A stretch of DNA of 47,202 nt from a virus (Duplodnaviria; Heunggongvirae; Uroviricota; Caudoviricetes), in the IMG/VR virus record IMGVR_UViG_2861038214_000003, positions 1 through 47,202 of that record. One strand, written 5' to 3'. Both the position numbers and the translations under genes were made by a program. The notes beneath the pieces are model-generated. The model saw only the letters and a list, made by a program, of their open reading frames with translations, was not told the origin of the DNA and searched no databases. Below, in pieces: positions 1 to 47,202 of this stretch. Each line of letters starts with the position of its first letter. Positions within the stretch are counted from its first letter, which is position 1.

Positions 1-79
1 GTCATAGAACTTCCATTATTCTCCTGAAGATAATAATCGCCAAATAAACCAATACTCAGCTTTACAATATACTAACTAA

Positions 80-113
80 CCGCAGAACGTTATTTCATAC
101 AACGTTTCTGCGG
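80..113 (-). other. Inverted-repeat hairpin (about 12-bp stem) just downstream of the tfa fragment stop; no T-tract
   Basis: ccgcagaacgtt ... aacgtttctgcgg read directly from the sequence; no flanking U-run on either strand. Confidence 0.3.
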
Positions 114-128
114 CATATCACAAAACGA

Positions 129-311
129 TTACTCCATAACAGGGACAGCAGGCCACTCAATATCAGGTGCAGTTGATGTATCAACACGGTTCAGCAACAC
201 CCGATACTTCTTCCAGGCTTCCAGCAACGAGTTTTCTTCCTCCGTTGCGATCTCCAGCTCAACAACAGTCTGAACGTACCAGGAACAGCCTCCTTCAGGG
301 CTTGAAGGATA
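129..311 (-). pseudogene. tfa: Tail fibre assembly protein (Tfa) C-terminal fragment, no start codon, in frame immediately after the stf TGA stop
   Basis: Hand translation of the minus strand after the stf stop gives [60 protein letters not shown], which resembles the conserved Tfa C-terminus. The N-terminal ~130 aa of a normal Tfa are absent. Confidence 0.6.
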
Positions 312-3300
312 TCAATGTTCGCTTCCTGTTAACTGCCCGACAAGTGCAACCAGTTCGCTTACCTGATTTTCCAGAGTGCTGATCCGGGTGCCTGCTGTTG
401 CCATATTTTTACGTAGCGTTATGTTTTCCTCTTCCAGCGCGGTAACGCGACCATCTGTTTCACGGGCGACCTGAACAAGTAACCCCGTCACGGCGGAGTA
501 GTCAACATTAAGATAGCGAGTTTCTTCGCGTAGCTCGTTGCCGTCAACGGTCGGACCTTGCAACTCTTCACCATAATGAGTAAACGATCCCACAGCTTCA
601 GGTATCGCCTCCATTACTTCCTGTGCAATAACGCCAGCATAAGGCATTCCGTTTTCCTTGAGCGTGTAGGTGTACCCGTTCATTTTACGGATTGCTTTCG
701 TCGCGTCGCTGATAACGCGAATATCGTCTTTAAGGTCGCGGTCTGATGACTGATTCAGCGTTGTGCAATTAATAGCGCCATTTACATCAAACAACTGGCC
801 TGCTGATGTTTTTTGCGCATAAAACAGATACGCAGCAGACGTTCCAACCTCAAAAACGTTTTGTCGATCACTTGATCCCCATACTTTTGCGGCAAATGAT
901 AGTTCTGTATTACCTAAGTTCTGTAAAACAAAACGATTGCCAGTCCCTGATTGCTTTGTAAGGGTTAAATCAACAGTTGAGTTAACCTCATCCTTGTTGA
1001 TAGTGAGCGCCTGCGCTTTAGCCCCGTTAACAGCACCTGTTTTGAGTTGAACCGCGCCGTCATTACCATTTAGCAGTATCTCAGCTCCGCTAAAGAAATT
1101 TTTTAGCGACAGCATCTTACTTACGCCGACTGATGAACCCAACGCCCACGCGAGAGAATTACCGGTGCTATCAAACCCACGTACAAAGCAATCCATTTTG
1201 CTATAGTCTGACGTGCTTCCAAGGACATCAATCCGCCCTCCGCCAGATTTTAACGGGTTAGATGTGGTTAATGACCTGACAGCAAGATCGGTGGATGAAT
1301 TTAGATCGTCTACTGTTAGTAATTTCTTCCATTCCTGCATCGTTCCGTTTTCAACTGTTCTTCCCCAAAAACCGGAATTGCGGCCTCCGAACTGCACAGC
1401 ATAATTTTTACTAAATTGAACATGAATGCCGCCAAGAACCATAGAACCTGCCGGGCCGTTTGTACTGCCTGCGATTGGTCTAAATTTGTCGACGTTATCA
1501 GTATGCTGAGAGTTCCAGTCATGACCTGTTAATGTTGCGATTCCTGAGTTAGCTGTAATTAACCCAGACGCTTTAAGATTTTGCACATCAATTCTGTCGT
1601 TTGCGAAATTATATGCAATTGCGTTACTAACGCTTCCGGCATCATCATAATCGCGTTTCTGAATAAACCAGTCGCCAGCATTAGCAATGAGAGTATAAGT
1701 AGGCGTGTTAGCCGGGCGATCTGTTTCATTAAATCTTATTGCTGGGTTAGCGCTCCTTATTTGTAAAGGTTTTTCAACCGTTGATTTCAGTATCGCACTA
1801 TCTACAATTAAATTACCTTCTGAGTTAAGGTTTAGATATTTTGAAGCACCAGTTGAACCATCGTATGTAAACCTTATTGTTAATTGACCTGGCTCATTTG
1901 ATAAAGTCTCAACATACATATCAGCACCAAGACGCACAGTGCTGTCAGTTGCTAACAGTCTTGTATGGAGAATACCACTAGATGTGTATGTATTGGTCGA
2001 ATCACTATATCTATCAAGAAATAGACTGTTAAGTTGAGGGCTATTACTCCTGCCTAATCCAAGATTCGTTCTGGCACCATCAATAGTTGCCGCACCAGTA
2101 CCACCATGAGAAACATCAAGCGGTATCCATTTTTTTTGTGTGTCGCTGTAACACCCCCATGTTGATCCGGTTAAACCCAGGCGCATGGATTTATCATGGT
2201 TATATAACCATGTTTCGCTATTCCATTGGTCAAGACGGTCCACTTCATTTTTGCGAGCGTGGCGTGTCCATTGCGGGCCTGTTGTCGGATTCCAGCGATA
2301 AGTATAAAGCGAGCGCGTAGCCCATCCCTGAAATACACCTGTATACGCTGGTGTTCCATCTACCTGACTAATAAACCCCGTAAGACTGCTTTCACCGGAT
2401 GCAATCGATGGAAAGCCTTTTGCATTACTCATAATGCGCATAAATCCGATATACCCTGATGGGTTGCCGGAAATATCAGGACAATCACGCGGGGCTGAGC
2501 CAAGACCGATATTATCGCCAACAATTACTTGCGCCTGGTTGCGATAATTAAGTGCGTCCGCCGCAGATTTCGCCGCGTTTGTTTCACTGGATTTAGCATT
2601 AGTTTCGCTGGCTTTAGCGTTTGTTTCGCTGCTCTTTGCTGCTGCCTCGCTATTTTTCGCGTTGGTTTCTGATTTTTTGGCTGCTGTCGCGGAGTTTGCC
2701 GATGCAGTTTGTGAGGCCGCTGCCGCCTGTGCGCTGTTATCCGCATTCGTCTCAGACGTTTTTGCGGCCTTCGCGGAATTTCCTGCCGCCGTTGCCGAGG
2801 AAGCTGCACTACTGGCACTTGATGATGCGTTCGTTTCTGATGATTTCGCTGCCTCTTTTGAGGCCGCCGCATCCCGGGCTGAGGTGGCAGCTTCTGACGC
2901 TTTCGTGGTCGCGGTGGATGCAGAAGTGGCGGCTGATTGTTGTGACGCTGCCGCATTCGTTTCTGACGTTTTCGCCGCACCGGCACTGGTGGCCGCCGCG
3001 CTTTTTGAGGACTCTGCAGCGGCAGCACTTTTTGATGCTTCAGTAGCCTTTGTTGATGCCGTTCCTGCGCTGGAAGACGCTGACTGAGCCGACGACGCGG
3101 CCTGTCCGGCTGACGTGCTGGCTGCGCGTGCTGAGTCTGCAGCATCAGTCGCATGGGTTGCCGCCTCACGGGCTGATGTGCCGGCATCGCCGGCTGACTT
3201 CTTCGCGGCTGCCGTGTTCTGTGCCACCGCGGACGCGTTACGCGCCACCTCTTCCACCATCAGCTCAAAACGGCGCAGTGCCTCCGGACGGACATCATCC

Positions 3301-3584
3301 TCCGTCATGGCACCAAGAAAATCATTCAGCGTACCGGGTTGAGAATCTTCATACACGGTGATGGTCCCGGCATGTGACGGCGGGAACCCTTCCACCAACA
3401 GAATAACGCTGTACTGACCGTACTCAACGTCCATGCTGTAACGCCCGGCTTCATCCGGATTTTCAGATGCCAGCGTGTTCACCACCACCGTGGTGCTGTT
3501 ACGTTTTGCTTTCAGCTGGATTGTGCAGTTCTGTACCGGTTTTCCTGTGCCGTCTTTCAGTACACCTGAAATCTTTACTGCCAT
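312..3584 (-). CDS. stf: Side tail fibre protein (Stf-like) with Ala/Ser/Thr-rich repeat region and a C-terminal intramolecular chaperone (peptidase S74-like) domain
   Basis: 1090-aa ORF, GGGGGG RBS before the ATG at 3584. The C-terminus (..GVIAQEVMEAIPEAV..LNVDYSAVTGLLVQVARE..ALEEENITLRKN..) matches my recollection of the autoproteolytic chaperone domain of endosialidase-type fibres. Position downstream of J and lom. Confidence 0.85.
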   Translation of the reverse strand: MAVKISGVLKDGTGKPVQNCTIQLKAKRNSTTVVVNTLASENPDEAGRYSMDVEYGQYSVILLVEGFPPSHAGTITVYEDSQPGTLNDFLGAMTEDDVRPEALRRFELMVEEVARNASAVAQNTAAAKKSAGDAGTSAREAATHATDAADSARAASTSAGQAASSAQSASSSAGTASTKATEASKSAAAAESSKSAAATSAGAAKTSETNAAASQQSAATSASTATTKASEAATSARDAAASKEAAKSSETNASSSASSAASSATAAGNSAKAAKTSETNADNSAQAAAASQTASANSATAAKKSETNAKNSEAAAKSSETNAKASETNAKSSETNAAKSAADALNYRNQAQVIVGDNIGLGSAPRDCPDISGNPSGYIGFMRIMSNAKGFPSIASGESSLTGFISQVDGTPAYTGVFQGWATRSLYTYRWNPTTGPQWTRHARKNEVDRLDQWNSETWLYNHDKSMRLGLTGSTWGCYSDTQKKWIPLDVSHGGTGAATIDGARTNLGLGRSNSPQLNSLFLDRYSDSTNTYTSSGILHTRLLATDSTVRLGADMYVETLSNEPGQLTIRFTYDGSTGASKYLNLNSEGNLIVDSAILKSTVEKPLQIRSANPAIRFNETDRPANTPTYTLIANAGDWFIQKRDYDDAGSVSNAIAYNFANDRIDVQNLKASGLITANSGIATLTGHDWNSQHTDNVDKFRPIAGSTNGPAGSMVLGGIHVQFSKNYAVQFGGRNSGFWGRTVENGTMQEWKKLLTVDDLNSSTDLAVRSLTTSNPLKSGGGRIDVLGSTSDYSKMDCFVRGFDSTGNSLAWALGSSVGVSKMLSLKNFFSGAEILLNGNDGAVQLKTGAVNGAKAQALTINKDEVNSTVDLTLTKQSGTGNRFVLQNLGNTELSFAAKVWGSSDRQNVFEVGTSAAYLFYAQKTSAGQLFDVNGAINCTTLNQSSDRDLKDDIRVISDATKAIRKMNGYTYTLKENGMPYAGVIAQEVMEAIPEAVGSFTHYGEELQGPTVDGNELREETRYLNVDYSAVTGLLVQVARETDGRVTALEEENITLRKNMATAGTRISTLENQVSELVALVGQLTGSEH
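2520..3190 (-). repeat. Degenerate in-frame tandem repeats (about 21 nt) encoding repeated (K/A)SSETNA-like heptads within stf
   Basis: Repeated units such as tttagcattagtttcgctgg / tttagcgtttgtttcgctgc on the plus strand; the protein shows KSETNAKNSEAAAKSSETNAKASETNAKSSETNAAKS. Confidence 0.7.
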
Positions 3585-3595
3585 ATTCCCCCCAC

Positions 3596-3622
3596 AAAAA
3601 AGCCCACCTGAACCGGCGGGCT
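3596..3622 (-). terminator. Candidate intrinsic terminator between lom and stf
   Basis: GC-rich hairpin (agccc...gggct) followed by a T-run on the minus strand. Confidence 0.4.
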
Positions 3623-3648
3623 GTCATAACACTGTGTTACCTGGCTAA

Positions 3649-4248
3649 TCAGAATTTATAACCGACACCCACGATGAAACCGTCAGTGCGCCAGTCACCA
3701 CTGCCAGAACCTTCATAAGCAATATCAATGGCCACGGATTCGGTCGGGTTAAACTGCACGCCAGCCCCCCACGCCAGAGACGTGTTGCTGTGGCGACCGT
3801 CATCACTTCCGGTCAGCACATCGTGCTTTTTCCCCTTGTTGTCAGTTACGCGGATATAATCTCCGGAGAAAGTCGAAACACGGCTGTAAGCCATACCCGC
3901 CATCGCATACGCGCTGAACCATTCATTCACGCGCACAGACGGCCCCGCCATCACGCTGAACCAGCGGTTACGCACTGAATCTTCATGCCAGCGGGTATCG
4001 CTGTAACGGGTCAGCTGGCGATTCTTGTCTCCTGCATAGCTGAATGACGTCACCAGCCCCAGCGTATCCGTAAACTCATAACGGTATTTCACGTTAATCC
4101 CGTTAAGATCATCGCTGCCGGGAACGTTCGTCGAGGCATGAAGATACCCCGCGCTCAGCGTGGACTGATGTTCAGACGCCCATGCAGGCGCACCGGATAC
4201 GACCAGACAGATGGCTGCGGACAAAATGGCTGCACAAACTTTACGCAT
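3649..4248 (-). CDS. lom: Lom/Ail-family outer membrane beta-barrel protein
   Basis: 199-aa ORF with a signal peptide; resembles lambda Lom from memory; ends ..GVGYKF. Sits in the canonical J-lom-stf position. Confidence 0.9.
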   Translation of the reverse strand: MRKVCAAILSAAICLVVSGAPAWASEHQSTLSAGYLHASTNVPGSDDLNGINVKYRYEFTDTLGLVTSFSYAGDKNRQLTRYSDTRWHEDSVRNRWFSVMAGPSVRVNEWFSAYAMAGMAYSRVSTFSGDYIRVTDNKGKKHDVLTGSDDGRHSNTSLAWGAGVQFNPTESVAIDIAYEGSGSGDWRTDGFIVGVGYKF

Positions 4249-4270
4249 AATTACCTCTCGCTTTTCTGCA

Positions 4271-4297
4271 ATAAAAAAGGCGTCATTTCTGACGCCC
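4271..4297 (-). terminator. Intrinsic terminator after J
   Basis: Minus strand reads gggcgtcagaaatgacgcc followed by ttttttatt: 7-bp stem, 4-nt loop, U-tract. Confidence 0.6.
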
Positions 4298-4314
4298 GTT
4301 CTGGGTTATAAAAT

Positions 4315-7716
<3,402 letters not shown>

Positions 7717-7773
7717 TCACGCTCCATAAACGACAAAACCGCCCGCAGGCGGTTTCACACAAAACATTCTGCA

Positions 7774-8421
7774 TCAGCGACCAATCACCACAACCTGACC
7801 ACCATCTCCTTCATCTGCCGTGCTGATCTCCTGAGAAATCACCCGTGACCCCACGCGCATTTCACCGTACAGAACCGGCAGAACATTGCCCTGGGCAACC
7901 ATGTTATCCAGTGAGGAGAAATAGGTGTTCTGCTTACCGTTATCCGTTGTCTGTGTGCGGGGAGTTCTGGCTTTCGGTGCCAGCATCTGAGCCACACCGC
8001 CCAGGATCATACTGGCCCCTGCCGCATACATGCCCGATACAGCCGCGGTACCCAGCCAGCCCACAGGGTTCCACCATGCCACCGCAATCAGCGCCGCACC
8101 CAGCACTGCCTGAAAAACACCGCCACTTTTAGCTCCCGCCAGACGCGGCACAATGTGGATCACGGCACCATTTGCCAGCGGCTCATTAAGACGGGCAGAT
8201 AATTCATTTTCTCCTGCATCACGCCCGACAATGCGCACCTGATACCAGCCGTCGCTCAGTTTCTGACGAAACGCCGGGAGCTGTGTGGCCAGTGCGCGGA
8301 TGGCTTCAGCCCCCGTTTTCACACGAAGGTCGATGCGGCGGCCAAATCGTTGTAAATCCCCGTAAAGGCAGATGCGTGCCATTCCCGGTGACGCCAGAGG
8401 GAGTGTGTGCGTCGCTGCCAT
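7774..8421 (-). CDS. I: Tail assembly protein I
   Basis: 215-aa ORF starting MAATHTLPLASPGMARICLYGDLQRFGRR.., lambda I-like; overlaps the end of K. Confidence 0.85.
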   Translation of the reverse strand: MAATHTLPLASPGMARICLYGDLQRFGRRIDLRVKTGAEAIRALATQLPAFRQKLSDGWYQVRIVGRDAGENELSARLNEPLANGAVIHIVPRLAGAKSGGVFQAVLGAALIAVAWWNPVGWLGTAAVSGMYAAGASMILGGVAQMLAPKARTPRTQTTDNGKQNTYFSSLDNMVAQGNVLPVLYGEMRVGSRVISQEISTADEGDGGQVVVIGR

Positions 8422-9062
8422 TTGTCGGTGTACCTCTCTCGTTTACTCAGTTGTTCAGGAATATGGTGCAGCAGCTCACCGTCACCACAGTAAATGGCGG
8501 CATGATTCGGCACCGATGAACCAAAACAGCACAGCAGCACGTCGCCAGGCTGCGCCTCTGTCAGTGGGACACGGTAAAAACCCGTTGCCTCCATATTGTC
8601 AAGATAGAGATTCTGGCCGTGACGCCACCAGTCATCCCCGCGATGAAAATCCGGCATCTCAATTCCCGCCAGATGGTAAGCGTCCCGGAACAGCGTGTAA
8701 CAGTCCGTCACCCCGTGCTCAAAGCGCCGCCCGGTGAGATGCGGCACACAGAGGAATTTATGAATCGCCCCCCGGCAGACCAGCCACCACGGCAAATCAC
8801 TCTGCACCTGCAGCCGCCGGTCGGCCTCACTCAGCCAGGGCAGACCACCGGGGTGGCTGTGGACCAGCGCCACAATCTCTCCCTGCATTTCTGCACTCAG
8901 CCAGTCCTCCGGCGACATCCGGAAATACTCCTCCGGCTCACCGGAGATATTCACGCAGGGAAAATATCTTTCTCCCTCCGGCGTTCTCACCACGAAGCCG
9001 CACGACTCTGCTGGCGCACATCGCCGGGCGTGCGCCAGAATCGCTGATTCTGTCTCTGTCAT
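8319..9062 (-). CDS. K: Tail assembly protein K (JAMM/MPN plus NlpC/P60-like); true start may be internal
   Basis: Protein carries HSHP (JAMM-like) and Cys/His motifs typical of lambda K; position between L and I. Confidence 0.8.
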   Translation of the reverse strand: MTETESAILAHARRCAPAESCGFVVRTPEGERYFPCVNISGEPEEYFRMSPEDWLSAEMQGEIVALVHSHPGGLPWLSEADRRLQVQSDLPWWLVCRGAIHKFLCVPHLTGRRFEHGVTDCYTLFRDAYHLAGIEMPDFHRGDDWWRHGQNLYLDNMEATGFYRVPLTEAQPGDVLLCCFGSSVPNHAAIYCGDGELLHHIPEQLSKRERYTDKWQRRTHSLWRHREWHASAFTGIYNDLAAASTFV

Positions 9063-9067
9063 GGGAT

Positions 9068-9766
9068 TTACTGCGAAAGTTTGTTAATGGAAAGGAAGCC
9101 GCCAAAGTTGCCGACGTTATTGCGAAACTTACAGCCGCTCAGGCATTTGCTGCATTTATCCTTCGTGATATCGGACGTCGGCTGGTCATATTCATCCGCG
9201 ACAGCCGGACCGTGATAACCGCACTCATCACCGCGATAGGTCCAGGTGCAGGTATTAGCCAGCATGATGCGCCCCGGAAAAACGGCACCATCCGTTTCCG
9301 TCGGTGTGGAGAGCACAAAGGAGGCACTGACCGCGCTCAGTTCGCTGCACTGCTCGATGCGCCAGCGGCTGATCACCTCCTGCTCCGGATCGGCGTCACT
9401 GTTTCCGTTGACGAAGTTCACCGCATCCAGAAAACGGGCGTAAACCTTACGCCGGACCACCGTTCCGCCGACCAGACTCTGCAGATCTTCCGCCATCCCG
9501 GTGATCATGCCGTGCAGGTTAGAGACCGTCAGTGTCGGACGGGCAGCACTGCCCTTGCCGTTCATCTCAAATCCACTCCCCTGAATGGGATAGGCCTGAT
9601 ACTGCCGACTCTGCCAGGTGACAGACTCACCTTTTTCGTTCTGCTCATTACAGAAAAAGTAGCGATCCCCGCCTACCTCGGTCAGGTCGATTTCCCAGAG
9701 CACCACGCTGGCCGACTGCTCCGCACGAATGCATTCATTCAGCGTTTCCTGTTGTATGTCCTGCAT
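9068..9766 (-). CDS. L: Minor tail protein L
   Basis: 232-aa ORF, lambda L-like length and position. Confidence 0.85.
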   Translation of the reverse strand: MQDIQQETLNECIRAEQSASVVLWEIDLTEVGGDRYFFCNEQNEKGESVTWQSRQYQAYPIQGSGFEMNGKGSAARPTLTVSNLHGMITGMAEDLQSLVGGTVVRRKVYARFLDAVNFVNGNSDADPEQEVISRWRIEQCSELSAVSASFVLSTPTETDGAVFPGRIMLANTCTWTYRGDECGYHGPAVADEYDQPTSDITKDKCSKCLSGCKFRNNVGNFGGFLSINKLSQ

Positions 9767-10104
9767 CAGATTACCACTTCGTCAAACTGACACGAAAAAT
9801 CGGTATAGGTGATATGTTCTGTCGCTGACCACGTTCGACACACCACTCTGATTTTTCTGTTAATACCCGGCGGGCGCCAAAAAAAAGATTTATAGCCTTC
9901 ATGCCGGGCTAAAAATTTTTCAAATGAATCACGTTCATTCGCCTCAACTTTGAAATCACAGGTGAAAACGCGCAGAGAATGATTAAGTCCATTTGGACTT
10001 CGTTGCTCATAACCATCGCCAAATCTTACAGTTTTTATCGATGGTTTATTTTCTGTTTTCATTCCATCCTCTGGTAACCAGTGAAATTCTTCCGTATTAG
10101 CCAC
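9766..10104 (-). CDS. M: Minor tail protein M
   Basis: 112-aa ORF between the tape measure and L. Confidence 0.8.
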
Positions 10105-16848: not shown

Positions 16849-16851
16849 GTG

Positions 16852-37225: not shown

Positions 37226-38083
37226 TTACCCCCTGAAGCCTGGCGGGATCGCACTATCCGGTAACGAGACGGTGTTAACCTGTCGGAGTAACGTCTCAGG
37301 TCGAACACCTTTCGGCGCGAACAAGCCCTGGTATTCATTGGCGATGCTGTGTCGAATCACCTGCTCAGGTGAAAAACCCTGCTGGCGGAATTTTTCCAGC
37401 TCCCGTATCGCCCCGTTAGCGCCCTGCTCCGTTCGAATCGGTTTTCGCAATGCCTGGCGAAATTCAACCCACTCACGCCAAAGCGAGACAGAAATCCAGT
37501 TCGGCAAAGCAATATCCAGAGGGTCAAACTTTTTGACACCTCGATTCCCCCGGGGGGGATTTAGGGGGGGATCTGTTTTTAGATCTTTATCTGTATCTTT
37601 ATTAGTTGCCTTTGTGTTGACATCATGTTCAAACACCACTTCAACATCTGTTTGAACACCTGTTAAATTTCTCTCTTGTTTTGTTTGAACATCTGCTTCC
37701 TTTCTGCTTCTTCTGGCCTGAACAGATGCTTTTCCTGCGGCTGATTTTTTGGTTAATTTTTCCCTGACTGATGCCAGATCTTCCTCAATCCGAAGATGCA
37801 CCCATTCCTCGCCGTTATCGCAAAAAAACTCCTGCAAGGATGGTTCAACATCAGCCCATCGCTCGTTAGTCAGACGGGCAATTTTTGCCAGCCTGTTTTT
37901 AGGTATTGGCTTTCCTGTTTGCCAGTAATTGAACATCAGCAACAAATACGCACCATGCTCCTCTGCTGACAAATGCATGGTGTCAGCCAGGTAATCAGCT
38001 ATGTACAGTTGCATGTATGGTAATGCGGCCATAATTGCCCCGTATGATGCTGCCCGGTGGCTTAGAATAAGCACAAACAGCAT
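37226..38083 (-). CDS. ydaU: Replication initiation protein (YdaU-like, lambda O-analogous position)
   Basis: 285 aa, the same length as K-12 YdaU as I recall it; low-complexity linker encoded over the repeat-rich DNA segment. Confidence 0.75.
   Translation of the reverse strand: MLFVLILSHRAASYGAIMAALPYMQLYIADYLADTMHLSAEEHGAYLLLMFNYWQTGKPIPKNRLAKIARLTNERWADVEPSLQEFFCDNGEEWVHLRIEEDLASVREKLTKKSAAGKASVQARRSRKEADVQTKQERNLTGVQTDVEVVFEHDVNTKATNKDTDKDLKTDPPLNPPRGNRGVKKFDPLDIALPNWISVSLWREWVEFRQALRKPIRTEQGANGAIRELEKFRQQGFSPEQVIRHSIANEYQGLFAPKGVRPETLLRQVNTVSLPDSAIPPGFRG
37523..37694. promoter_or_regulatory. Candidate origin of replication inside the ydaU-like ORF
   Basis: Palindrome GTCAAActtttTTTGAC, C5G7 and G7 tracts, two GATC sites, AT-rich TATCTG/TATCTT repeats and three iteron-like TGTTCAAACACC / TGTTTGAACACC / TGTTTGAACATC copies. 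Confidence 0.4.
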
Positions 38084-38095
38084 GGAAACTTTTGC

Positions 38096-38518
38096 TTAAT
38101 GAACAATGACAGAATCGTCGGAAGAACCGCCGCCGCTGAAATGCGCTTTCCGGTAAACGGCTTGGACTGCATCATCATGCGCATCAATTGCCGTACTTAA
38201 CGCTTCCTGCGCCGCCAGTAATGCACGGCGTTCCAGGGTATCGAAGATGCAGAGTCGGTGACGCAGCTCGCGCGGAAGGATTGCCAGAATTGCTGGGATC
38301 AGCTTCTGAATTTTTTCTCTTTGCGTTTTCGTTTCACCTTTCAACCAACGGTGATAGATATTCTTCTGATTGTTCCAGTCCTTGCCTGGAACCAGGGGCA
38401 ATTCGCCGCCCCCCTGGCGCAGATATTCTTCAGTAATTGCATTGGCTACCCATGCCTGCCCTTTTTCGGCTGCTAGGGCAAACAACACTGATTCGATGTG
38501 CTCATGCTTGATTTTCAT
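38096..38518 (-). CDS. ydaT: YdaT-like early protein
   Basis: 140 aa, the same length as K-12 YdaT as I recall it; follows the cro-like gene. Confidence 0.7.
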   Translation of the reverse strand: MKIKHEHIESVLFALAAEKGQAWVANAITEEYLRQGGGELPLVPGKDWNNQKNIYHRWLKGETKTQREKIQKLIPAILAILPRELRHRLCIFDTLERRALLAAQEALSTAIDAHDDAVQAVYRKAHFSGGGSSDDSVIVH

Positions 38519-38540
38519 GAATCATTTGCCTCTTGATGTT

Positions 38541-38837
38541 TCAGGTATGATCAAATGAGGATTTGTTACTGTCATTTAGTTGCTTCACTGACATATTCTG
38601 CGAACAACATGCCGAACGTCGTAAATATGACCAGTCAATATCAGGACGAAGTTCTTCGCACAGAACCTCACCTCTTGTTGCACGTTCAATTGCTGGACAT
38701 CTCTCGGCAGGCAATTGACGTACCCCTTTGATCCATTGATTTACGCTTGGAGGTGATACACCTAAAAGCCTAGCCATTGCTGATTGCCCACCGACAACAG
38801 CACAAGCTTGCTTGAATGAATAGTTCTCTTTTTTCAT
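38541..38837 (-). CDS. ydaS: Cro-like HTH regulator (YdaS-like)
   Basis: 98 aa, HTH ..FKQACAVVGGQSAMARLLGVSPPSVNQW..; divergent from the repressor gene. Confidence 0.8.
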   Translation of the reverse strand: MKKENYSFKQACAVVGGQSAMARLLGVSPPSVNQWIKGVRQLPAERCPAIERATRGEVLCEELRPDIDWSYLRRSACCSQNMSVKQLNDSNKSSFDHT

Positions 38838-38863
38838 CGAATGAACTCCAAAAACACACAGAA

Positions 38864-38893
38864 ATATTAGGCGACGCCTAACGCAATTGTCAA
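38864..38893 (-). promoter_or_regulatory. pR-like sigma70 promoter (TTGACA, 18-nt spacer, TAATAT) with operator palindrome TTAGGCGACGCCTAA (38867-38881) in the spacer/-10
   Basis: Read on the minus strand about 25 nt upstream of the GGAG RBS of the cro-like gene. Confidence 0.55.
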
Positions 38894-38960
38894 TAGGCTG
38901 TGCCTAATGCGGTAAGGGTAGGGATTGCCTAATGTAATGCGCATAGGAGAATATTAAGCA

Positions 38961-39437
38961 ATGCTTAGTGGTAAAGACTTAGGCCGAGCGATAGAGCAGG
39001 CCATTAACAAAAAAATCGCATCGGGATCCGTCAAATCAAAGGCGGAGGTCGCACGCCACTTCAAAGTCCAACCACCATCAATTTATGACTGGATTAAGAA
39101 AGGCTCTATAAGTAAAGATAAACTTCCAGAATTATGGCGTTTCTTTTCTGATGTTGTTGGTCCAGAGCATTGGGGGCTTAACGAATACCCCATACCAACC
39201 CCCACCAATTCAGATACAAAAAGTGAACTTTTAGATATAAACAACCTTTATCAAGCAGCCTCTGATGAAATAAGAGCGATTGTAGCTTTCCTGTTATCTG
39301 GAAATGCTACAGAACCAGATTGGGTTGACCACGATGTTCGCGCCTATATAGCAGCGATGGAAATGAAAGTGGGTAAGTATCTGAAAGCTCTAGAATCTGA
39401 ACGGAAAAGCCAGAACATCACAAAAACTGGAACTTAA
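38961..39437 (+). CDS. racR: Prophage repressor (RacR-like)
   Basis: 158 aa with HTH and AGGAGA RBS; lies between the divergent promoters. Confidence 0.8.
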   Translation: MLSGKDLGRAIEQAINKKIASGSVKSKAEVARHFKVQPPSIYDWIKKGSISKDKLPELWRFFSDVVGPEHWGLNEYPIPTPTNSDTKSELLDINNLYQAASDEIRAIVAFLLSGNATEPDWVDHDVRAYIAAMEMKVGKYLKALESERKSQNITKTGT

Positions 39438-39547
39438 ACTTATATGGTCTGACGGAAAACTCCTGGATTCCGTTATTTAACCCCCCCATCACTTTCTGCT
39501 GTCGCCATCACCTATTAGGTTACGCTCAAAACATTAGGCATAGCCTA

Positions 39548-39576
39548 TTGACAATCAATTAGGCATTACCTATAGT
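39548..39576 (+). promoter_or_regulatory. pL-like sigma70 promoter (TTGACA, 17-nt spacer, TATAGT) flanked by ATTAGGCAT operator-like motifs
   Basis: Near-consensus hexamers read directly; points into the ydaG/ydaF-kilR-recET operon. Confidence 0.55.
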
Positions 39577-39745
39577 TCCAGCATACCACCCACCCCGCCC
39601 CACAGAACGCCGGGCAATACTTCGAGTTACCAGGCAGTGGTAAGGGGTTAAGTAGCCAGCCCGAGGCGTATGAACATGACGGCGGGATTCAAATTTTGCA
39701 GTGCAGCAGTTAGTTCCGCCACCCGGCGTTAAGGGGAGAGATAAG

Positions 39746-39880
39746 ATGGTGCATTACGAAGTAGTTCAGTATTTGATGGATTGTTGCGGTATCACTTACA
39801 ACCAGGCTGTGCAGGCTTTACGCAGCAACGACTGGGATCTCTGGCAGGCAGAAGTCGCTATACGTAGCAACAAGATGTGA
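39746..39880 (+). CDS. Small early protein (YdaG-like, 44 aa)
   Basis: AAGGGGAGAG RBS; MVHYEVVQYLMDCCGITYNQAVQALRSNDWDLWQAEVAIRSNKM*. Confidence 0.6.
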   Translation: MVHYEVVQYLMDCCGITYNQAVQALRSNDWDLWQAEVAIRSNKM

Positions 39881-39890
39881 GATTCGCAAA

Positions 39891-40046
39891 ATGCAAAAAA
39901 TCGACCTCGGCAACAACGAATCCCTGGTGTGCGGCGTGTTCCCCAACCAGGATGGAACGTTCACTGCCATGACGTATACCAAAAGCAAAACATTTAAAAC
40001 CGAAACTGGTGCGCGCCGATGGTTGGAGAAGCACACAGTAAGCTAA
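39891..40046 (+). CDS. Small early protein (YdaF-like, 51 aa)
   Basis: MQKIDLGNNESLVCGVFPNQDGTFTAMTYTKSKTFKTETGARRWLEKHTVS*. Confidence 0.6.
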   Translation: MQKIDLGNNESLVCGVFPNQDGTFTAMTYTKSKTFKTETGARRWLEKHTVS

Positions 40047-40531
40047 CGATTAAAACGTCTACTCCTGCTGTTCCAGAATAACTTCATAAAATGGGAGTAT
40101 TTTTCGGTGACGAGATAATAAGAACAGTTTGCGCTATCACTCTGATGTTGAATGATGCCCTTCCGTTCTAATTTTTTCATAACCGGGTTACGGCAAGGAG
40201 AAGTGATAATAAGATTTCCTGTTTTAAGGAAATCTTTAAATACAGCGATTTCTTTCTCAGATAAACGAAGCAATACTCGTTGCTCTGGTAGTAATGAATA
40301 ATGCTTTTGAATATGTGCTCGCAATCTTGAGAAGGAAATGGCGACCACGAAAGAAAAGGCAAAAACGATAATCTGAAAGAGCCAAGGTATTTCAGTATAA
40401 GCATTGAATGCGGCAGTAAACTCTTTCGGTATCAGCCAGAGAGTGAGACCAAAAATGATAATCGTATACATAAGTCTTTCGAGTGGCTCGTTAGCAAAAA
40501 GTTTCAACAATGGAGTAAATACATCCAACAT
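40043..40531 (-). CDS. sieB: Superinfection exclusion protein B
   Basis: From MLDVFTPLLKLFANEPLERLMYTIIIFGLTLWL.. (162 aa) it matches K-12 SieB as I recall it; the ORF track extends 41 codons further upstream. Confidence 0.85.
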   Translation of the reverse strand: MLDVFTPLLKLFANEPLERLMYTIIIFGLTLWLIPKEFTAAFNAYTEIPWLFQIIVFAFSFVVAISFSRLRAHIQKHYSLLPEQRVLLRLSEKEIAVFKDFLKTGNLIITSPCRNPVMKKLERKGIIQHQSDSANCSYYLVTEKYSHFMKLFWNSRSRRFNR

Positions 40532-40972
40532 ATCAATAACTCTCAACTGTAAGGGTATTGAAATGTTAACACAAGCTCTCGCTGTAGGGGTATAGCCGAG
40601 ACCACCGAAGCCCGGAGGTGGTGAAATAAAACCGGGCACAACACGAAGGCGCATTTCCGATATCCATAAAGAGTCGGTCTTGTCTGTTAAATTTAAATGG
40701 TGGGAGTGCGCCTCCGGTTGTAAATAACGACATTGCTGTGTGTAGTCCTGGCGGCATCAGTTTTTTTCTTGAAGTTCGGCTGATGTCCGCCCTTTTTAAA
40801 GTGAATTTTGTGATGCGGTGAATGCGGCTAAGCGCACGTGGCACAGTTAAAAGTCATGTTAGTCCTTATTGGTTTGGGTGGGAAAGCCGACTGTAATTGT
40901 TAACTGGTTGCAGTCACCTGGAGGCACCAGGCACCGCATCAACAAAGTTCATTTGTAAAAATGGAGATAATT

Positions 40973-41194
40973 ATGATTGCACATCACTTCGGAACTGATG
41001 AAATACCACGTCAGTGTGTGACTCCTGGCGATTATGTTCTTCATGAAGGCCGGACATATATTGCCTCGGCAAACAATATTAAAAAGCGAAAACTATATAT
41101 TCGTAACCTGACCACAAAAACATGCATTACTGACCGCATGATTAAAGTCTTCCTCGGTCGTGATGGTTTACCTGTAAAGGCGGAGTCATGGTGA
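40973..41194 (+). CDS. kilR: KilR, FtsZ-targeting cell division inhibitor
   Basis: GGAGA RBS; [40 protein letters not shown].. (73 aa) matches K-12 KilR as I recall it. Confidence 0.85.
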
Positions 41195-41364
41195 TGACTA
41201 AGAAAATAAAATGTGCTTACCACCTTTGCAAAAAAGACGTTGAAGAAAGCAAAGCTATTGAAAGAATGCTTCACTTCATGCACGGGATTTTATCAAAAGA
41301 CGAACCGAGAAAATATTGCAGTGAAGCTTGTGCCGAAAAAGACCAGATGGCACATGAACTTTAA
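41194..41364 (+). CDS. ydaE: YdaE-like Cys-rich small metal-binding protein (56 aa)
   Basis: TGATG overlap with the kilR stop; [56 protein letters not shown]. Confidence 0.7.
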   Translation: MTKKIKCAYHLCKKDVEESKAIERMLHFMHGILSKDEPRKYCSEACAEKDQMAHEL

Positions 41365-41438
41365 TTAATTGACTATTCGAAACTGAATTTATGCCAGAAA
41401 TGGCAGGTATTCGCTCAACCTTAATTAAGGAGAAAAAC

Positions 41439-41714
41439 ATGATTACCAATTATGAAGCCACTGTTGTAACTACCGATGACATTGTTCACGAGGTGAATCT
41501 GGAAGGAAAGCGCATTGGCTACGTAATTAAAACAGAAAATAAAGAAACCCCATTCACTGTGGTTGATATCGATGGTCCATCAGGCAACGTAAAAACACTT
41601 GATGAAGGTGTCAAAAAAATGTGCCTGGTGCATATCGGAAAGAATCTGCCCGCAGAAAAAAAAGCCGAATTTCTGGCAACTCTAATTGCAATGAAATTAA
41701 AAGGTAAAATCTGA
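41439..41714 (+). CDS. racC: RacC
   Basis: AGGAG RBS; MITNYEATVVTTDDIVHEVNLEGKRIGYVIK.. (91 aa). Confidence 0.8.
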   Translation: MITNYEATVVTTDDIVHEVNLEGKRIGYVIKTENKETPFTVVDIDGPSGNVKTLDEGVKKMCLVHIGKNLPAEKKAEFLATLIAMKLKGKI

Positions 41715-41815
41715 AAGAAATAGCCTGCGTATGGCGCAGGCTATGAACAGTGTGTATCCGGCAAGATCATTCACTGAACAAAACGAATTTTAATCTGAGT
41801 TGAGGTTAAAAAACA

Positions 41816-44416
41816 ATGAGCACAAAACCACTCTTCCTGTTACGGAAAGCGAAAAAATCATCCGGTGAACCTGACGTCGTCCTGTGGGCAAGCAACGATT
41901 TTGAATCGACCTGTGCCACTCTGGACTACCTGATCGTTAAGTCAGGTAAAAAACTGAGCAGCTATTTTAAAGCTGTTGCCACGAATTTTCCTGTCGTTAA
42001 TGACCTGCCCGCTGAAGGTGAGATCGATTTTACCTGGAGTGAACGCTATCAACTCAGCAAAGACTCCATGACATGGGAACTAAAACCGGGAGCAGCACCA
42101 GACAACGCTCATTATCAAGGCAATACCAACGTCAACGGCGAAGACATGACTGAGATTGAGGAGAATATGCTACTCCCAATTTCTGGCCAGGAACTGCCCA
42201 TTCGTTGGCTTGCTCAACACGGCAGCGAAAAACCGGTAACGCACGTTTCACGCGACGGACTCCAGGCATTACACATTGCTCGGGCTGAAGAACTACCGGC
42301 TGTTACTGCCCTGGCTGTTTCCCACAAAACCAGCCTGCTCGACCCGCTGGAAATTCGCGAACTCCACAAACTGGTTCGTGACACTGACAAAGTTTTCCCT
42401 AATCCTGGTAATTCAAACCTGGGACTGATAACTGCTTTTTTCGAAGCATACCTGAACGCTGACTACACCGATCGAGGACTGCTGACAAAAGAGTGGATGA
42501 AGGGTAATCGTGTTTCACACATCACTCGCACGGCTTCCGGTGCTAATGCTGGCGGCGGAAACCTCACCGATCGCGGCGAAGGTTTCGTACACGATCTGAC
42601 GTCACTGGCGCGCGACGTAGCCACTGGCGTACTGGCCCGTTCAATGGATCTGGACATCTATAACCTTCATCCGGCACACGCTAAACGCATTGAGGAAATT
42701 ATCGCTGAAAATAAACCGCCCTTTTCTGTTTTCCGCGACAAATTCATCACCATGCCTGGCGGGCTGGATTATTCCCGCGCCATCGTGGTTGCGTCCGTAA
42801 AAGAAGCACCAATTGGGATCGAGGTCATCCCCGCGCACGTCACTGAATATCTGAACAAAGTACTGACTGAAACCGATCATGCCAACCCTGATCCGGAAAT
42901 CGTGGATATTGCCTGCGGTCGCTCCTCTGCCCCGATGCCGCAGCGAGTAACAGAAGAAGGAAAACAGGATGATGAAGAAAAACCGCAACCATCTGGAACA
43001 ACGGCAGTTGAACAGGGAGAGGCTGAAACAATGGAACCGGACGCAACTGAACATCATCAGGACACGCAGCCGCTGGATGCTCAGTCACAGGTAAATTCTG
43101 TTGATGCGAAATATCAGGAACTGCGGGCAGAACTCCATGAAGCCCGGAAAAACATTCCATCAAAAAATCCTGTCGATGCCGATAAATTGCTTGCTGCATC
43201 ACGTGGTGAATTTGTTGACGGAATTAGCGACCCGAACGATCCGAAATGGGTAAAGGGGATCCAGACTCGCGATTGTGTGTACCAGAACCAGCCAGAAACG
43301 GAAAAAACCAGCCCAGATATGAATCAACCTGAGCCAGTAGTGCAACAGGAACCGGAAATAGCCTGCAATGCCTGCGGCCAGACTGGCGGGGATAACTGCC
43401 CTGACTGTGGTGCGGTGATGGGCGACGCAACATACCAGGAAACATTCGATGAAGAGAGTCAGGTTGAAGCTAAGGAAAATGATCTGGAGGAAATGGAAGG
43501 CGCTGAACATCCGCACAATGAGAATGCTGGCAGCGATCCGCATCACGATTGCAGTGATGAAACTGGCGAAGTCGCAGATCCCGTAATCGTAGAAGACATA
43601 GAGCCAAGTATTTATTACGGAATTTCGAATGAGAATTACCACGCGGGTCCCGGTATCAGTAAGTCTCAGCTCGATGACATTGCTGATACTCCGGCACTAT
43701 ATTTGTGGCGTAAAAATGCCCCCGTGGACACCACAAAGACAAAAACGCTCGATTTAGGAACTGCTTTCCACTGCCGGGTACTTGAACCGGAAGAATTCAG
43801 TAACCGCTTTATCGTAGCACCTGAATTTAACCGCCGTACAAACGCCGGAAAAGAAGAAGAGAAAGCGTTTCTGATGGAATGCGCAAGCACAGGAAAAACG
43901 GTTATCACTGCGGAAGAAGGCCGGAAAATTGAACTCATGTATCAAAGCGTTATGGCTTTGCCGCTGGGGCAATGGCTTGTTGAAAGCGCCGGACACGCTG
44001 AATCATCAATTTACTGGGAAGATCCTGAAACAGGAATTTTGTGTCGGTGCCGTCCGGACAAAATTATCCCTGAATTTCACTGGATCATGGACGTGAAAAC
44101 TACGGCGGATATTCAACGATTCAAAACCGCTTATTACGACTACCGCTATCACGTTCAGGATGCATTCTACAGTGACGGTTATGAAGCACAGTTTGGAGTG
44201 CAGCCAACTTTCGTTTTTCTGGTTGCCAGCACAACTATTGAATGCGGACGTTATCCGGTTGAAATTTTCATGATGGGCGAAGAAGCAAAACTGGCAGGTC
44301 AACAGGAATATCACCGCAATCTGCGAACCCTGTCTGACTGCCTGAATACCGATGAATGGCCAGCTATTAAGATATTATCACTGCCCCGCTGGGCTAAGGA
44401 ATATGCAAATGACTAA
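41816..44416 (+). CDS. recE: Exodeoxyribonuclease VIII (RecE)
   Basis: 866 aa, the same length as K-12 RecE as I recall it; C-terminal nuclease domain ..[35 protein letters not shown]... Confidence 0.9.
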
Positions 44417-45218
44417 GCAACCACCAATCGCAAAAGCCGATCTGCAAAAAACTCAGGGAAACCGTGCACCAGCAGCAGTTAAAAATAGCGACGTGATTAG
44501 TTTTATTAACCAGCCATCAATGAAAGAGCAACTGGCAGCAGCTCTTCCACGCCATATGACGGCTGAACGTATGATCCGTATCGCCACTACAGAAATTCGT
44601 AAAGTTCCGGCGTTAGGAAACTGTGACACTATGAGTTTTGTCAGTGCGATCGTACAGTGTTCACAGCTCGGACTTGAGCCAGGTAGCGCCCTCGGTCATG
44701 CATATTTACTGCCTTTTGGTAATAAAAACGAAAAGAGCGGTAAAAAGAACGTTCAGCTAATCATTGGCTATCGCGGCATGATTGATCTGGCTCGCCGTTC
44801 TGGTCAAATCGCCAGCCTGTCAGCCCGTGTTGTCCGTGAAGGTGACGAGTTTAGCTTCGAATTTGGCCTTGATGAAAAGTTAATACACCGCCCGGGAGAA
44901 AACGAAGATGCCCCGGTTACCCACGTCTATGCTGTCGCAAGACTGAAAGACGGAGGTACTCAGTTTGAAGTTATGACGCGCAAACAGATTGAGCTGGTGC
45001 GCAGCCTGAGTAAAGCTGGTAATAACGGGCCGTGGGTAACTCACTGGGAAGAAATGGCAAAGAAAACGGCTATTCGTCGCCTGTTCAAATATCTGCCCGT
45101 ATCAATTGAGATCCAGCGTGCAGTATCAATGGATGAAAAGGAACCACTGACAATCGATCCTGCAGATTCCTCTGTATTAACCGGGGAATACAGTGTAATC
45201 GATAATTCAGAGGAATAA
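44409..45218 (+). CDS. recT: Recombinase RecT (single-strand annealing protein)
   Basis: [26 protein letters not shown].., 269 aa; start overlaps the recE stop. Confidence 0.9.
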
Positions 45219-45274
45219 TTCAGCCTGGCGGTGTAATGCACCGCCAACTTGAAATATTTTTTATGAGAAAAATT

Positions 45275-45469
45275 ATGAGATATGACAATGTTAAACCATG
45301 TCCATTTTGTGGTTGTCCATCAGTAACGGTGAAAGCCATTTCAGGATATTACCGAGCGAAGTGTAACGGATGCGAATCCCGAACCGGTTATGGTGGAAGT
45401 GAAAAAGAAGCACTCGAAAGATGGAATAAACGAACCACTGGAAATAATAATGGAGGTGTTCATGTATAA
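45275..45469 (+). CDS. ralR: RalR, type I toxin (DNase)/restriction alleviation protein
   Basis: MRYDNVKPCPFCGCPSVTVKAISGYYRAKCNGCESRTGYGGSEKEALERWNKRTTGNNNGGVHV (64 aa). Confidence 0.85.
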   Translation: MRYDNVKPCPFCGCPSVTVKAISGYYRAKCNGCESRTGYGGSEKEALERWNKRTTGNNNGGVHV

Positions 45470-45671
45470 AATTACCGCCACTATTGAAAAGGAAGGTGGC
45501 ACTCCTACTAACTGGACAAGATATTCAAAATCTAAACTAACGAAATCAGAATGCGAAAAAATGCTCTCAGGTAAAAAAGAAGCAGGCGTTTCCAGAGAGC
45601 AGAAAGTAAAACTGATAAATTTTAATTGCGAGAAACTTCAGTCCTCGAGAATTGCATTGTATTCAAATTAA
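45462..45671 (+). CDS. ydaC: YdaC-like small protein
   Basis: GGAGG RBS; MYKITATIEKEGGTPTNWTRYSK.. (69 aa); start overlaps the ralR end. Confidence 0.7.
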   Translation: MYKITATIEKEGGTPTNWTRYSKSKLTKSECEKMLSGKKEAGVSREQKVKLINFNCEKLQSSRIALYSN

Positions 45672-45682
45672 AACTTCATAGC

Positions 45683-45698
45683 TGATTATTAATAATCA
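45683..45698. promoter_or_regulatory. Perfect 16-bp palindrome TGATTATTAATAATCA upstream of xis-int
   Basis: Read directly; sits in the intergenic gap between ydaC-like and the excisionase-like gene. Confidence 0.3.
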
Positions 45699-45725
45699 AC
45701 ATCGGGCGTCAATTTCAGTCTAACA

Positions 45726-45965
45726 TTGGCGCCTGCCAGAGGTGATGCGTTGGCACAAGTAATCTTTAATGAAGAGTGGATGGTTGAATACGGCCTGATG
45801 CTTCGCACTGGTCTGGGGGCCAGACAAATTGAAGCATACCGCCAGAACTGTTGGGTGGAGGGCTTCCACTTCAAACGAGTATCTCCTTTAGGTAAGCCAG
45901 ACAGCAAACGAGGGATTATCTGGTACAACTATCCAAAGATAAATCAGTTTATCAAAGACTCATGA
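45726..45965 (+). CDS. Excisionase-like protein (start uncertain)
   Basis: Small ORF immediately upstream of and abutting the integrase. Confidence 0.55.
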
Positions 45966-45966
45966 T

Positions 45967-47202
45967 ATGTCTAAATTACCAACAGGTGTCGAGATTAGAG
46001 GTAGATACATTCGCATCTGGTTCATGTTTCGAGGAAAACGATGTCGGGAAACATTAAAAGGCTGGGAGATTACAAACAGTAATATTAAAAAGGCCGGAAA
46101 TTTAAGAGCGCTGATAGTTCATGAAATAAACTCCGGTGAATTTGAGTATTTAAGACGTTTTCCCCAGTCCAGCACTGGGGCAAAAATGGTGACAACGAGA
46201 GTCATAAAAACGTTCGGAGAGCTTTGTGATATCTGGACAAAAATTAAAGAGACAGAGTTAACAACAAACACAATGAAGAAAACGAAATCACAATTAAAAA
46301 CACTCAGAATAATAATTTGTGAAAGTACCCCGATATCACATATTCGTTATAGCGATATCTTAAACTACCGGAATGAACTGCTGCATGGAGAAACGCTTTA
46401 CCTGGATAATCCAAGATCCAACAAAAAAGGAAGAACCGTGCGCACAGTTGATAACTATATCGCCCTGCTCTGTTCGCTGTTGCGTTTTGCGTATCAGTCG
46501 GGATTTATATCAACCAAACCATTTGAAGGAGTAAAAAAATTACAGCGAAACAGAATAAAGCCTGATCCGTTATCTAAAACAGAATTCAATGCATTAATGG
46601 AAAGTGAAAAAGGACAGAGCCAGAACTTGTGGAAATTTGCCGTTTACTCAGGACTTCGTCACGGGGAACTGGCAGCTCTGGCGTGGGAGGATGTGGATCT
46701 CGAAAAGGGAATAGTGAATGTCAGAAGAAACCTGACGATACTTGATATGTTCGGTCCCCCAAAAACAAATGCCGGGATCCGAACAGTAACACTACTGCAG
46801 CCTGCTCTTGAAGCACTGAAGGAGCAATACAAACTGACCGGGCATCATCGCAAAAGCGAAATCACCTTTTATCATCGGGAGTACGGCAGAACCGAAAAGC
46901 AAAAACTGCATTTTGTTTTCATGCCCAGGGTGTGTAACGGAAAACAAAAACCTTATTACTCGGTAAGCAGTTTGGGGGCAAGGTGGAATGCAGCAGTAAA
47001 ACGTGCTGGTATTCGCCGCCGTAATCCGTACCATACGCGGCATACTTTTGCCTGCTGGCTGTTGACGGCAGGAGCGAACCCGGCATTTATAGCCAGCCAA
47101 ATGGGGCATGAAACTGCGCAGATGGTGTATGAAATTTACGGTATGTGGATTGATGACATGAACGACGAACAGATAGCCATGTTGAATGCGCGGTTATCGT
47201 AG
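45967..47202 (+). CDS. intR: Tyrosine-type site-specific integrase
   Basis: 411 aa; C-terminal catalytic region ..HTRHTFACWLLTAGANPAFIASQMGHETAQMVYEIYGMW..; stop codon is the last triplet of the window. Confidence 0.9.
   Translation: MSKLPTGVEIRGRYIRIWFMFRGKRCRETLKGWEITNSNIKKAGNLRALIVHEINSGEFEYLRRFPQSSTGAKMVTTRVIKTFGELCDIWTKIKETELTTNTMKKTKSQLKTLRIIICESTPISHIRYSDILNYRNELLHGETLYLDNPRSNKKGRTVRTVDNYIALLCSLLRFAYQSGFISTKPFEGVKKLQRNRIKPDPLSKTEFNALMESEKGQSQNLWKFAVYSGLRHGELAALAWEDVDLEKGIVNVRRNLTILDMFGPPKTNAGIRTVTLLQPALEALKEQYKLTGHHRKSEITFYHREYGRTEKQKLHFVFMPRVCNGKQKPYYSVSSLGARWNAAVKRAGIRRRNPYHTRHTFACWLLTAGANPAFIASQMGHETAQMVYEIYGMWIDDMNDEQIAMLNARLS

Follow-up and report, generated by a model that had tools for sequence, protein, structure and literature searches.

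A Rac-family prophage of Escherichia coli WI1 as a probable undeleted counterpart of the K-12 Rac prophage

Introduction

The Rac prophage of Escherichia coli is incomplete in K-12 and, according to earlier work as cited in a review, intact in EDL933, which raises the question of what a full-length Rac element looks like, by which steps the K-12 copy was reduced, and whether a copy that has kept its modules would still work as a phage. Here, we examine these questions in a stretch of 47,202 nucleotides (hereafter the window), deposited as virus record IMGVR_UViG_2861038214_000003, which we found to be a 100% match to positions 2548789-2595990 of the E. coli WI1 chromosome (NZ_LT838196.1). The initial annotation had described this DNA as an apparently intact Rac-like prophage carrying every module of a viable lambdoid phage, possibly inducible and possibly the source state from which K-12 Rac decayed. 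Taking identity, architecture and the relation to K-12 Rac together, we conclude with high confidence that E. coli WI1 harbours here a lambdoid prophage of the Rac family, which IntR inserted into the 5' end of ttcA. The element would represent a full-length Rac prophage with a complete collinear lambdoid gene set, and K-12 Rac would derive from the same element through three illegitimate deletions and the insertion of one IS5. A poly-A run shortened by 1 nt, at the 3' end of the gene for the major tail tube protein, would be the only detectable lesion, and the tube protein is most likely functional.

Results

Alignment of the WI1 element to K-12 Rac

We compared the window by blastn with the Rac region of MG1655 (NC_000913.3 1411899-1434958) and observed five main collinear matches, with identities of 96-99.9%, together with a match to tfaR. 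The longest of them, at 36001-47202 (99.43%, 0 gaps), extends from intR to ydaW, and the others are found at 25713-28143 (99.88%; ynaK, trkG and rzoR/rzpR), 12396-14153 (99.03%; ynaA and ydaY), 3833-4046 (97.2%; lomR) and 2743-3838 (96.4%; lomR and the 5' part of stfR). The chromosomal flanks of the two strains are 99.98% identical on the ttcA side and 99.56% identical on the uspF side.

Between these matches lie three segments of the window that are deleted in K-12. The first, of ~7.9 kb (28144-36000), holds the ren-like gene, a cargo cassette, the nin genes, Q, the holin, the endolysin and the 5' part of Rz. The second, of ~11.6 kb (14154-25712), holds the tube, connector, head, terminase and TET-associated glycosyltransferase (TAGT) genes and most of the ParB gene, and the third, of ~8.4 kb (4047-12395), most of the tape measure gene and M-L-K-I-J. 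Each deletion junction displays a microhomology of exactly 2 bp, namely TA (28142/36001), TT (14152/25713) and TG (4045/12396), which is consistent with illegitimate recombination. In addition, K-12 lomR carries IS5, and the start of K-12 ydaY lies on the ynaK side of one of the junctions. As judged from this alignment, K-12 Rac is best described as the WI1-type architecture minus three deletions plus one IS5, and its genes ydaW, rzpR, ynaK, ydaY and ynaA as deletion-junction fragments, with ynaA (tmpR) keeping the 5' part of the tape measure gene and ynaK that of a ParB-like gene. An explicit decay route for K-12 Rac is thereby provided at the level of single bases, consisting of three deletions at 2-bp microhomologies and one IS5 insertion.

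We also considered whether ynaK is a pseudogene in WI1, since the Prokaryotic Genome Annotation Pipeline (PGAP) labels it as partial at 25709-25966, and rejected this, as the open reading frame (ORF) runs on to 25175 and encodes 263 aa, a 100% match to the ParB-like protein that is annotated as full-length in enterotoxigenic E. coli (ETEC) H10407.

The two elements have in common the ttcA site, the attachment (att) repeat, int/xis, racR-ydaSTUV, recET, ralR/RalA, kilR, sieB and trkG. The integration site, the repeat and the shared early genes fully support the assignment as Rac-like made in the initial annotation. At the tail fibre end they differ, with K-12 Rac keeping tfaR, pinR and ynaE, whereas WI1 has there an S74-type fibre end, a remnant of tfa, a gene for a 410-aa protein and sitABCD. 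Because of these changes of its own (the swapped S74-type fibre, the tfa remnant, the lack of pinR and ynaE, and sitABCD), the WI1 element is, on this comparison, a sister state of the K-12 progenitor and not its literal ancestor. The whole-prophage alignment that had been proposed as a check therefore supports the idea of an undeleted state at base resolution, and the suggestion that the element is the source state of K-12 Rac holds for the architecture, given the collinear alignment with three deletions and IS5, but not for descent, given the rearranged tail fibre end of WI1.

An alternative is that the structural half is not ancestral to Rac, with the late module having been acquired recently by recombination from another lambdoid prophage, in which case it would say little about decay in K-12. 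H10407 indeed has the module from trkG to the tail, at 99.0% identity, within a lambda-like prophage adjacent to bio, and the structural module is widespread, being present at a coverage of at least 80% in 672 of 5426 complete E. coli genomes (~12%), as against 52 genomes with at least 80% of window 24001-47202, which includes the Rac early region. Against this, K-12 Rac keeps collinear fragments of the late half (rzpR/rzoR, trkG, ynaK, ydaY, ynaA, lomR and stfR) at 96-99.9% identity, and the K-12 deletion junctions fall precisely within genes of the window, so that we regard a recent replacement as scarcely credible.

Boundaries of the prophage and its left flank

We found that the full prophage spans ~52.8 kb, of which the window covers 47.2 kb. 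Its ends are marked by a 43-bp imperfect direct repeat (40/43 identical), and the same pair flanks K-12 Rac. The right copy falls within the opening codons of ttcA, 59 nt beyond the right edge of the window (record 2596049-2596091; 23261-23303 of the flanking locus L002), and the left copy between uspF and sitA, ~5.5 kb before the window start (record 2543264-2543306; 5265-5307 of the flanking locus L006). The window ends on the right exactly at the stop codon of intR and on the left just past the 410-aa hypothetical gene, which in the PGAP/RefSeq annotation is preceded by sitABCD, uspF and ompN. The reading of positions 1-47202 as the whole prophage thus stands for 47.2 of ~52.8 kb, with both att repeats and the sitABCD cargo lying outside.

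The iron/manganese transporter operon sitABCD and the 410-aa gene lie at record positions 2543264-2548788 (5265-10789 of locus L006), immediately to the left of window position 1, and are inside the prophage, between the att repeat on the uspF side and the tail fibre genes. Related strains carry sitABCD in the same spot, at times with a major facilitator superfamily efflux gene in place of the 410-aa gene, for which no Pfam or PADLOC match was found. A literature search returned no paper joining sitABCD with a Rac prophage. Its position places this virulence cargo within a potentially mobile Rac prophage.

Genes were assigned from the ORF list, the PGAP/RefSeq annotation of both halves of the window and of both flanks, PHROGs and Pfam. 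We observe the gene order of a lambdoid siphovirus, proceeding through int-xis, recombination, immunity, replication, nin-Q, lysis, packaging-head and tail, and the PHROGs and Pfam assignments agree with the expected functions across the modules. The complete set would comprise int/xis, the recET early-left genes, the RacR/YdaS/YdaT switch, ydaUV, nin-like and Q-like genes, S/R/Rz/Rz1, terminase-portal-P22-type capsid and a lambda-like tail, with trkG and a cassette of hok, an OLD-like ATPase and Dcm as cargo, in addition to sitABCD outside the window. The tRNA scan of the window found none, and RalA was the only match of the Rfam scan.

A 3'-terminal frameshift in the tail tube gene

The major tail tube gene (Phage_tube_2; 14312-15273, minus strand) has lost 1 nt from a poly-A run, with A8 on the coding strand (T8 on the plus strand, 14361-14368), as opposed to A9 in otherwise identical close relatives. 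The gene consequently measures 962 nt rather than 963 nt, and translation stops at 14344, giving a product of 309 aa in place of one of 320 aa, with the last 16 residues replaced by five others after K304. When the window was scanned for indels against four related loci, this A-run was the only uncompensated in-gene indel, and among the structural genes the tail tube gene alone differs in length from its relatives. The hidden frameshift that the initial annotation had named as refuting intactness is therefore present, and the description as apparently intact survives to the extent that the frameshift, lying past the conserved tube domain, is probably not inactivating.

Next, we investigated how common the shortened run is, using an evenly spaced sample of ranked matches, since the low-complexity filter would mask the run in a short query. 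Of 60 copies sampled from the 715 E. coli genomes with this stretch, 57 keep the in-frame length, which corresponds to ~95%. An A8 allele exclusive to WI1 was rejected, as it is present in ETEC H10407 and in roughly 25-36 of the 715 genomes (~5%). In H10407 the A8 run is found on a different haplotype, prophage backbone and site (next to bio as opposed to ttcA), with 29 mismatches per 4.5 kb relative to WI1, and length variants of A7, A8 and A9 occur in the population. These observations bear on whether A8 is a homopolymer error of the WI1 assembly, the true prophage having A9 and no lesion. A difference of one base in a 9-nt homopolymer is a typical long-read error, strain NIST0056 is otherwise identical over the whole 1-kb gene alignment, and LST200A and N921, the relatives that are closest in the early region, have an intact tube gene of 963 nt. 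The identical A8 run in ~25-36 other complete genomes, including H10407, indicates, however, that the allele is natural, and a literature search for LT838196 found no read data or record of the sequencing method. We consider an assembly error unlikely.

The position of the change within the protein is informative about its consequence. The Phage_tube_2 profile of Pfam is matched over its whole length, up to residue 293, the solved tail protein structure 8xan_B aligns as far as residue 300, and in an alignment of tube homologues (70-97% identity) conservation ends at T301-R302. Beyond these residues the homologues carry either a Big_2 Ig-like domain, in forms of 390 aa, or 5-18 unrelated residues, in forms of 306, 309, 310, 314 and 319 aa, with one cluster of 310-aa homologues having 792 member sequences. 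Because the frameshift lies past the conserved tube domain and natural homologues end at the same length, we infer that it touches the non-conserved C-terminal tail alone and is probably harmless; that it would by itself abolish tail assembly seems rather improbable. PGAP flags three pseudogenes in the window, namely ynaK, tfa and the tail tube gene, and these calls deserve caution, that of ynaK being an artefact, that of tfa marking a real remnant and that of the tail tube gene being real in the DNA and probably without effect.

Across genomes the tube family (14344-15273; proteins P0008, P0079, P0093 and others) exists in two forms, one of ~390 aa with a C-terminal Big_2 domain and one of ~306-320 aa without it. 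The 16-aa tail of the E. coli Rac-type protein looks like the remnant of a linker, and near-identical Klebsiella pairs of 310 and 390 aa suggest that the Ig domain has been lost repeatedly. Other genomes have in-frame fusions between the tube gene and the 3' portion of either gene I or gene J (P0002, 421 aa; P0003, 472 aa), and tail-region deletions like those of K-12 have therefore occurred in other lineages.

Alternatively, the run could be a slippage-prone contingency or recoding site, at which -1 frameshifting or transcriptional slippage on A_AAA_AAA in the A8 allele yields tube forms of both 309 and 320 aa. The run contains a perfect X_XXY_YYZ heptamer in the zero-frame register, slipping by -1 leads back to exactly the 320-aa protein, and the differing haplotypes and sites of the A8 run in WI1 and H10407 (29 mismatches per 4.5 kb), as well as the run-length variants, would fit such a site. 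The two forms would end in ...KKIPRLP and ...KKNSPAAVIAKASAEAIS, and, if this were true, the A8 "pseudogene" allele, found on different backbones in ~5% of carriers, would be maintained rather than decaying. The tail that a slip would restore is not conserved, however, ~95% of copies require no slip, and recurrent homopolymer mutation fits the distribution equally well, so that we judge a recoding role quite improbable.

Evidence for a possibly defective prophage

Several observations weigh against a functional element. PGAP labels the tail tube gene a frameshifted pseudogene, and the 320-aa frame is the norm among the genomes sampled. The indel scan and the length comparisons are blind to missense or regulatory defects. 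A search of the window for the LexA box CTGT-N8-ACAG gave 0 matches, against a chance expectation of 0.46, and RacR lacks both a Pfam match and a recognisable autocleavage domain. The sequence of this prophage type shows no evident route of induction, and SOS induction may be weak or indirect. Lastly, the replication genes are separated from the nin/Q genes by a 3.2-kb cargo cassette (32014-35208) of opposite orientation, which, together with a bidirectional terminator-like hairpin that flanks it at 35197-35216, could hinder read-through from the early-right genes to Q.

It could therefore be argued that the prophage merely looks complete and is in fact defective, with the tube frameshift, or a lesion that leaves no visible trace, blocking tail assembly, or with the antisense cassette blocking Q, and that it represents a cryptic element at an earlier stage of decay than K-12 Rac. 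The PGAP call, the in-frame length kept in ~95% of 715 genomes, the intact tube gene of close relatives and the hairpin at the cassette border all point in this direction, as does the clear decay of the same module elsewhere, in the tube-I and tube-J fusions. The frameshift lies, however, beyond the last conserved residues, at a point where natural homologues have equally short unrelated tails, and all other genes equal those of the relatives in length. As to the cassette, related prophages hold other cargo at the same position, and this same version is kept in 11 other genomes at an identity of at least 99.9%. We take the possibility of a defective element seriously but consider it on the unlikely side, and a full-length Rac prophage with a most likely functional tube remains our preferred reading.

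Early region, immunity, cargo and lysis genes

The integrase gene intR (45967-47202, plus strand) was assigned from the PGAP annotation and the att position. It is adjoined at 40043-45965 by the early-left genes, identified by PGAP and by blastn to K-12, with sieB on the minus strand and kilR, ydaE, a racC-like gene, recE (41816-44416), recT, ralR, rcbA and xisR on the plus strand. The RalA antitoxin small RNA was located by Rfam at 45468-45646 on the minus strand (225 bits). The early-right and immunity genes (35242-39437), supported by PGAP, blastn and profile matches, consist of a DUF977/Ren-like gene, full-length DUF1627 (ydaW), ydaV, ydaU, ydaT and ydaS on the minus strand and racR (38961-39437) on the plus strand, and the element thus has both the RacR/YdaS/YdaT immunity region and the YdaU/YdaV replication genes.

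The cargo cassette at 32014-35208 is of low GC content (0.33-0.38) and consists of a hok/gef toxin gene (32014-32169, minus strand), an OLD/HEC-04-like ATPase-nuclease gene (32315-34144, plus strand) and a C5 cytosine (Dcm) methyltransferase gene (34168-35208, plus strand). The ATPase has 609 aa with AAA_21/AAA_15 matches, and its top PADLOC match is HEC-04 (E = 1.7e-34), with weaker matches to AriA, PtuA and GajA; by its content the cassette looks like candidate defence or restriction-like cargo. On the minus strand, profile matches identify a NinB/Orf-like gene (30949-31548), a DUF1364/HNH-like gene (30659-30949) and a Q-like antiterminator gene (30120-30662), with a terminator-like hairpin after Q at 30014-30039. 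The lysis cassette (27699-28981, minus strand) is made up of the holin (28640-28981), a GH24 endolysin (28160-28636), Rz (27699-28163) and the embedded Rz1 (27758-27943), an intact 61-aa lipoprotein with a lipobox nested in Rz, and is followed by the potassium transporter moron trkG (26104-27561, minus strand), which is also present in K-12 Rac.

Head, connector and tail genes

All genes of the head, connector and tail lie on the minus strand. Directly upstream of the terminase genes, the segment 24063-25966 contains a 69-aa ORF, a TAGT-family glycosyltransferase gene (24250-25182) and the intact gene for the ParB-like protein (25175-25966, 263 aa). The glycosyltransferase (PF20691, E = 8e-35; phrog_842) overlaps the ParB-like N-terminal domain protein, and no TET/JBP enzyme is present alongside it; the pair at 24250-25966 may be a DNA modification module. 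The same pair accompanies the late module in many E. coli genomes.

The head and packaging genes (17071-24059) comprise TerS (22965-24059), TerL (21683-22984), a DUF4055 portal (20274-21680), a MuF-like minor head protein (19178-20290), a scaffold-like DUF6651 protein (18309-19073) and a P22-type major capsid protein (17071-18210). They are followed by the connector genes (15300-17028), assigned by PHROGs, with a 58-aa ORF (16852-17028), the head-tail adaptor Ad1 (16453-16848), the head closure protein Hc1 (16070-16453), the tail completion protein Neck1 (15689-16069) and the tail terminator (15300-15692).

Beyond the tube gene, 13494-14263 encodes tail assembly chaperone G, which is called ydaY in K-12 and stops at 13802, and GT, its extension by -1 frameshifting, which stops at 13494 (phrog_313 and reading frames). 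The slippery heptamer A_AAA_AAG at 13808-13814 is in register, two codons before the G stop, and the -1 frame is open for ~105 more codons to 13494, giving a fused product of 256 aa, so that the arrangement is as expected for a working programmed -1 frameshift pair. The tape measure gene (10097-13330, 1077 aa) precedes the tail tip assembly genes (7774-10104), with M at 9766-10104, L at 9068-9766, K at 8319-9062 and I at 7774-8421. The tail tip/host specificity protein J (4315-7713, 1132 aa) has the same length as in relatives, and the gene for a Lom/Ail outer membrane protein (3649-4248) is unbroken, whereas K-12 lomR is split by IS5.

The side tail fibre (312-3584, 1090 aa) has a prophage tail fibre domain at its N-terminus and an S74 intramolecular chaperone at its C-terminus. 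Its N-terminal part, at 2743-3584, is 96.4% identical to K-12 stfR, and its distal part differs. A C-terminal remnant of a tail fibre assembly gene (129-263, 45 codons), a partial pseudogene in PGAP, was matched by blastn at 148-274 to the 3' end of K-12 tfaR with 86.6% identity. Because the side fibre has its own S74 chaperone, a tfa gene is probably not needed. The initial annotation's statement that all modules are complete with intact long ORFs is correct for the ORFs it cited, which exist at the given sizes (J, tape measure, portal, terminase, capsid and lysis cassette), and fails for the frameshifted tail tube gene and for tfa, of which only the 45-codon remnant is left.

Comparison with known Rac-type prophages

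Full-length and active Rac-type prophages at ttcA are already known from published work on KingRac, and the WI1 sequence is already annotated in RefSeq, so that the element itself is not new. KingRac, which resides at ttcA in a commensal E. coli of the mouse, is Rac-like and 46.8 kb long. Mitomycin induces it weakly, it forms particles visible by electron microscopy, and in the mouse gut it takes the place of the defective Rac of K-12 (Frazao et al. 2019, PMC6731689); later work describes it as an active prophage that probably mediates transduction (PMC12251178). Like the WI1 element, KingRac is lambdoid and located at ttcA, and like the window it measures ~47 kb. It has complete structural genes and demonstrates by experiment that a Rac-type prophage of full length can be induced, form particles and lysogenise. 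Because this published relative is active, inducibility is plausible in WI1 as well, and we infer that the element can excise and can probably make particles; the chances that WI1 releases infectious particles appear about even.

Among GenBank prophage records, Rac-SA53 (KU052037.1), for which a literature search returned one unrelated mention, and the records vB_EcoS-666R9, 673R7, 613R10 and 683R6 (ON4705xx-ON4706xx) have the Rac-type int, recET and replication genes found in WI1, and the vB_EcoS records also share its structural module at 97-99% identity. The early half is covered to just 43-74% in Rac-SA53 and the vB_EcoS records, and their immunity genes and cargo differ from those of WI1. 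We considered whether records matching both halves of the window are isolated viable phages and rejected this, as they are computationally predicted prophage regions (bioRxiv 10.1101/2022.06.29.498070). The records ON470581-ON470616, deposited as complete phage genomes, are such predicted regions from clinical isolates, and several of them end in the middle of tail genes.

In ETEC H10407, the prophage next to the bio operon (NC_017633.1 ~872-908 kb; locus 872791-912891) is 99.0% identical to WI1 over 19.9 kb, through Rz, trkG, ParB, terminase, head and tail, and shares the A8 frameshift of the tail tube gene. It differs in its early region, which carries lambda P, ren, NinB and QuuD, in its integration site, in the diverged J and side fibre, and in having an intact tfa, and is a clear case of module exchange, with a WI1-type late module joined to a lambda-type early region. 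KingRac was compared by its published gene list, in which recE measures 1974 nt and trkG is absent (PMC12251178), as opposed to a recE of 2601 nt and the presence of trkG in WI1. Because of these differences, KingRac is probably a mosaic relative and not the same phage as the WI1 element, which appears to be nearer to K-12 Rac than KingRac is.

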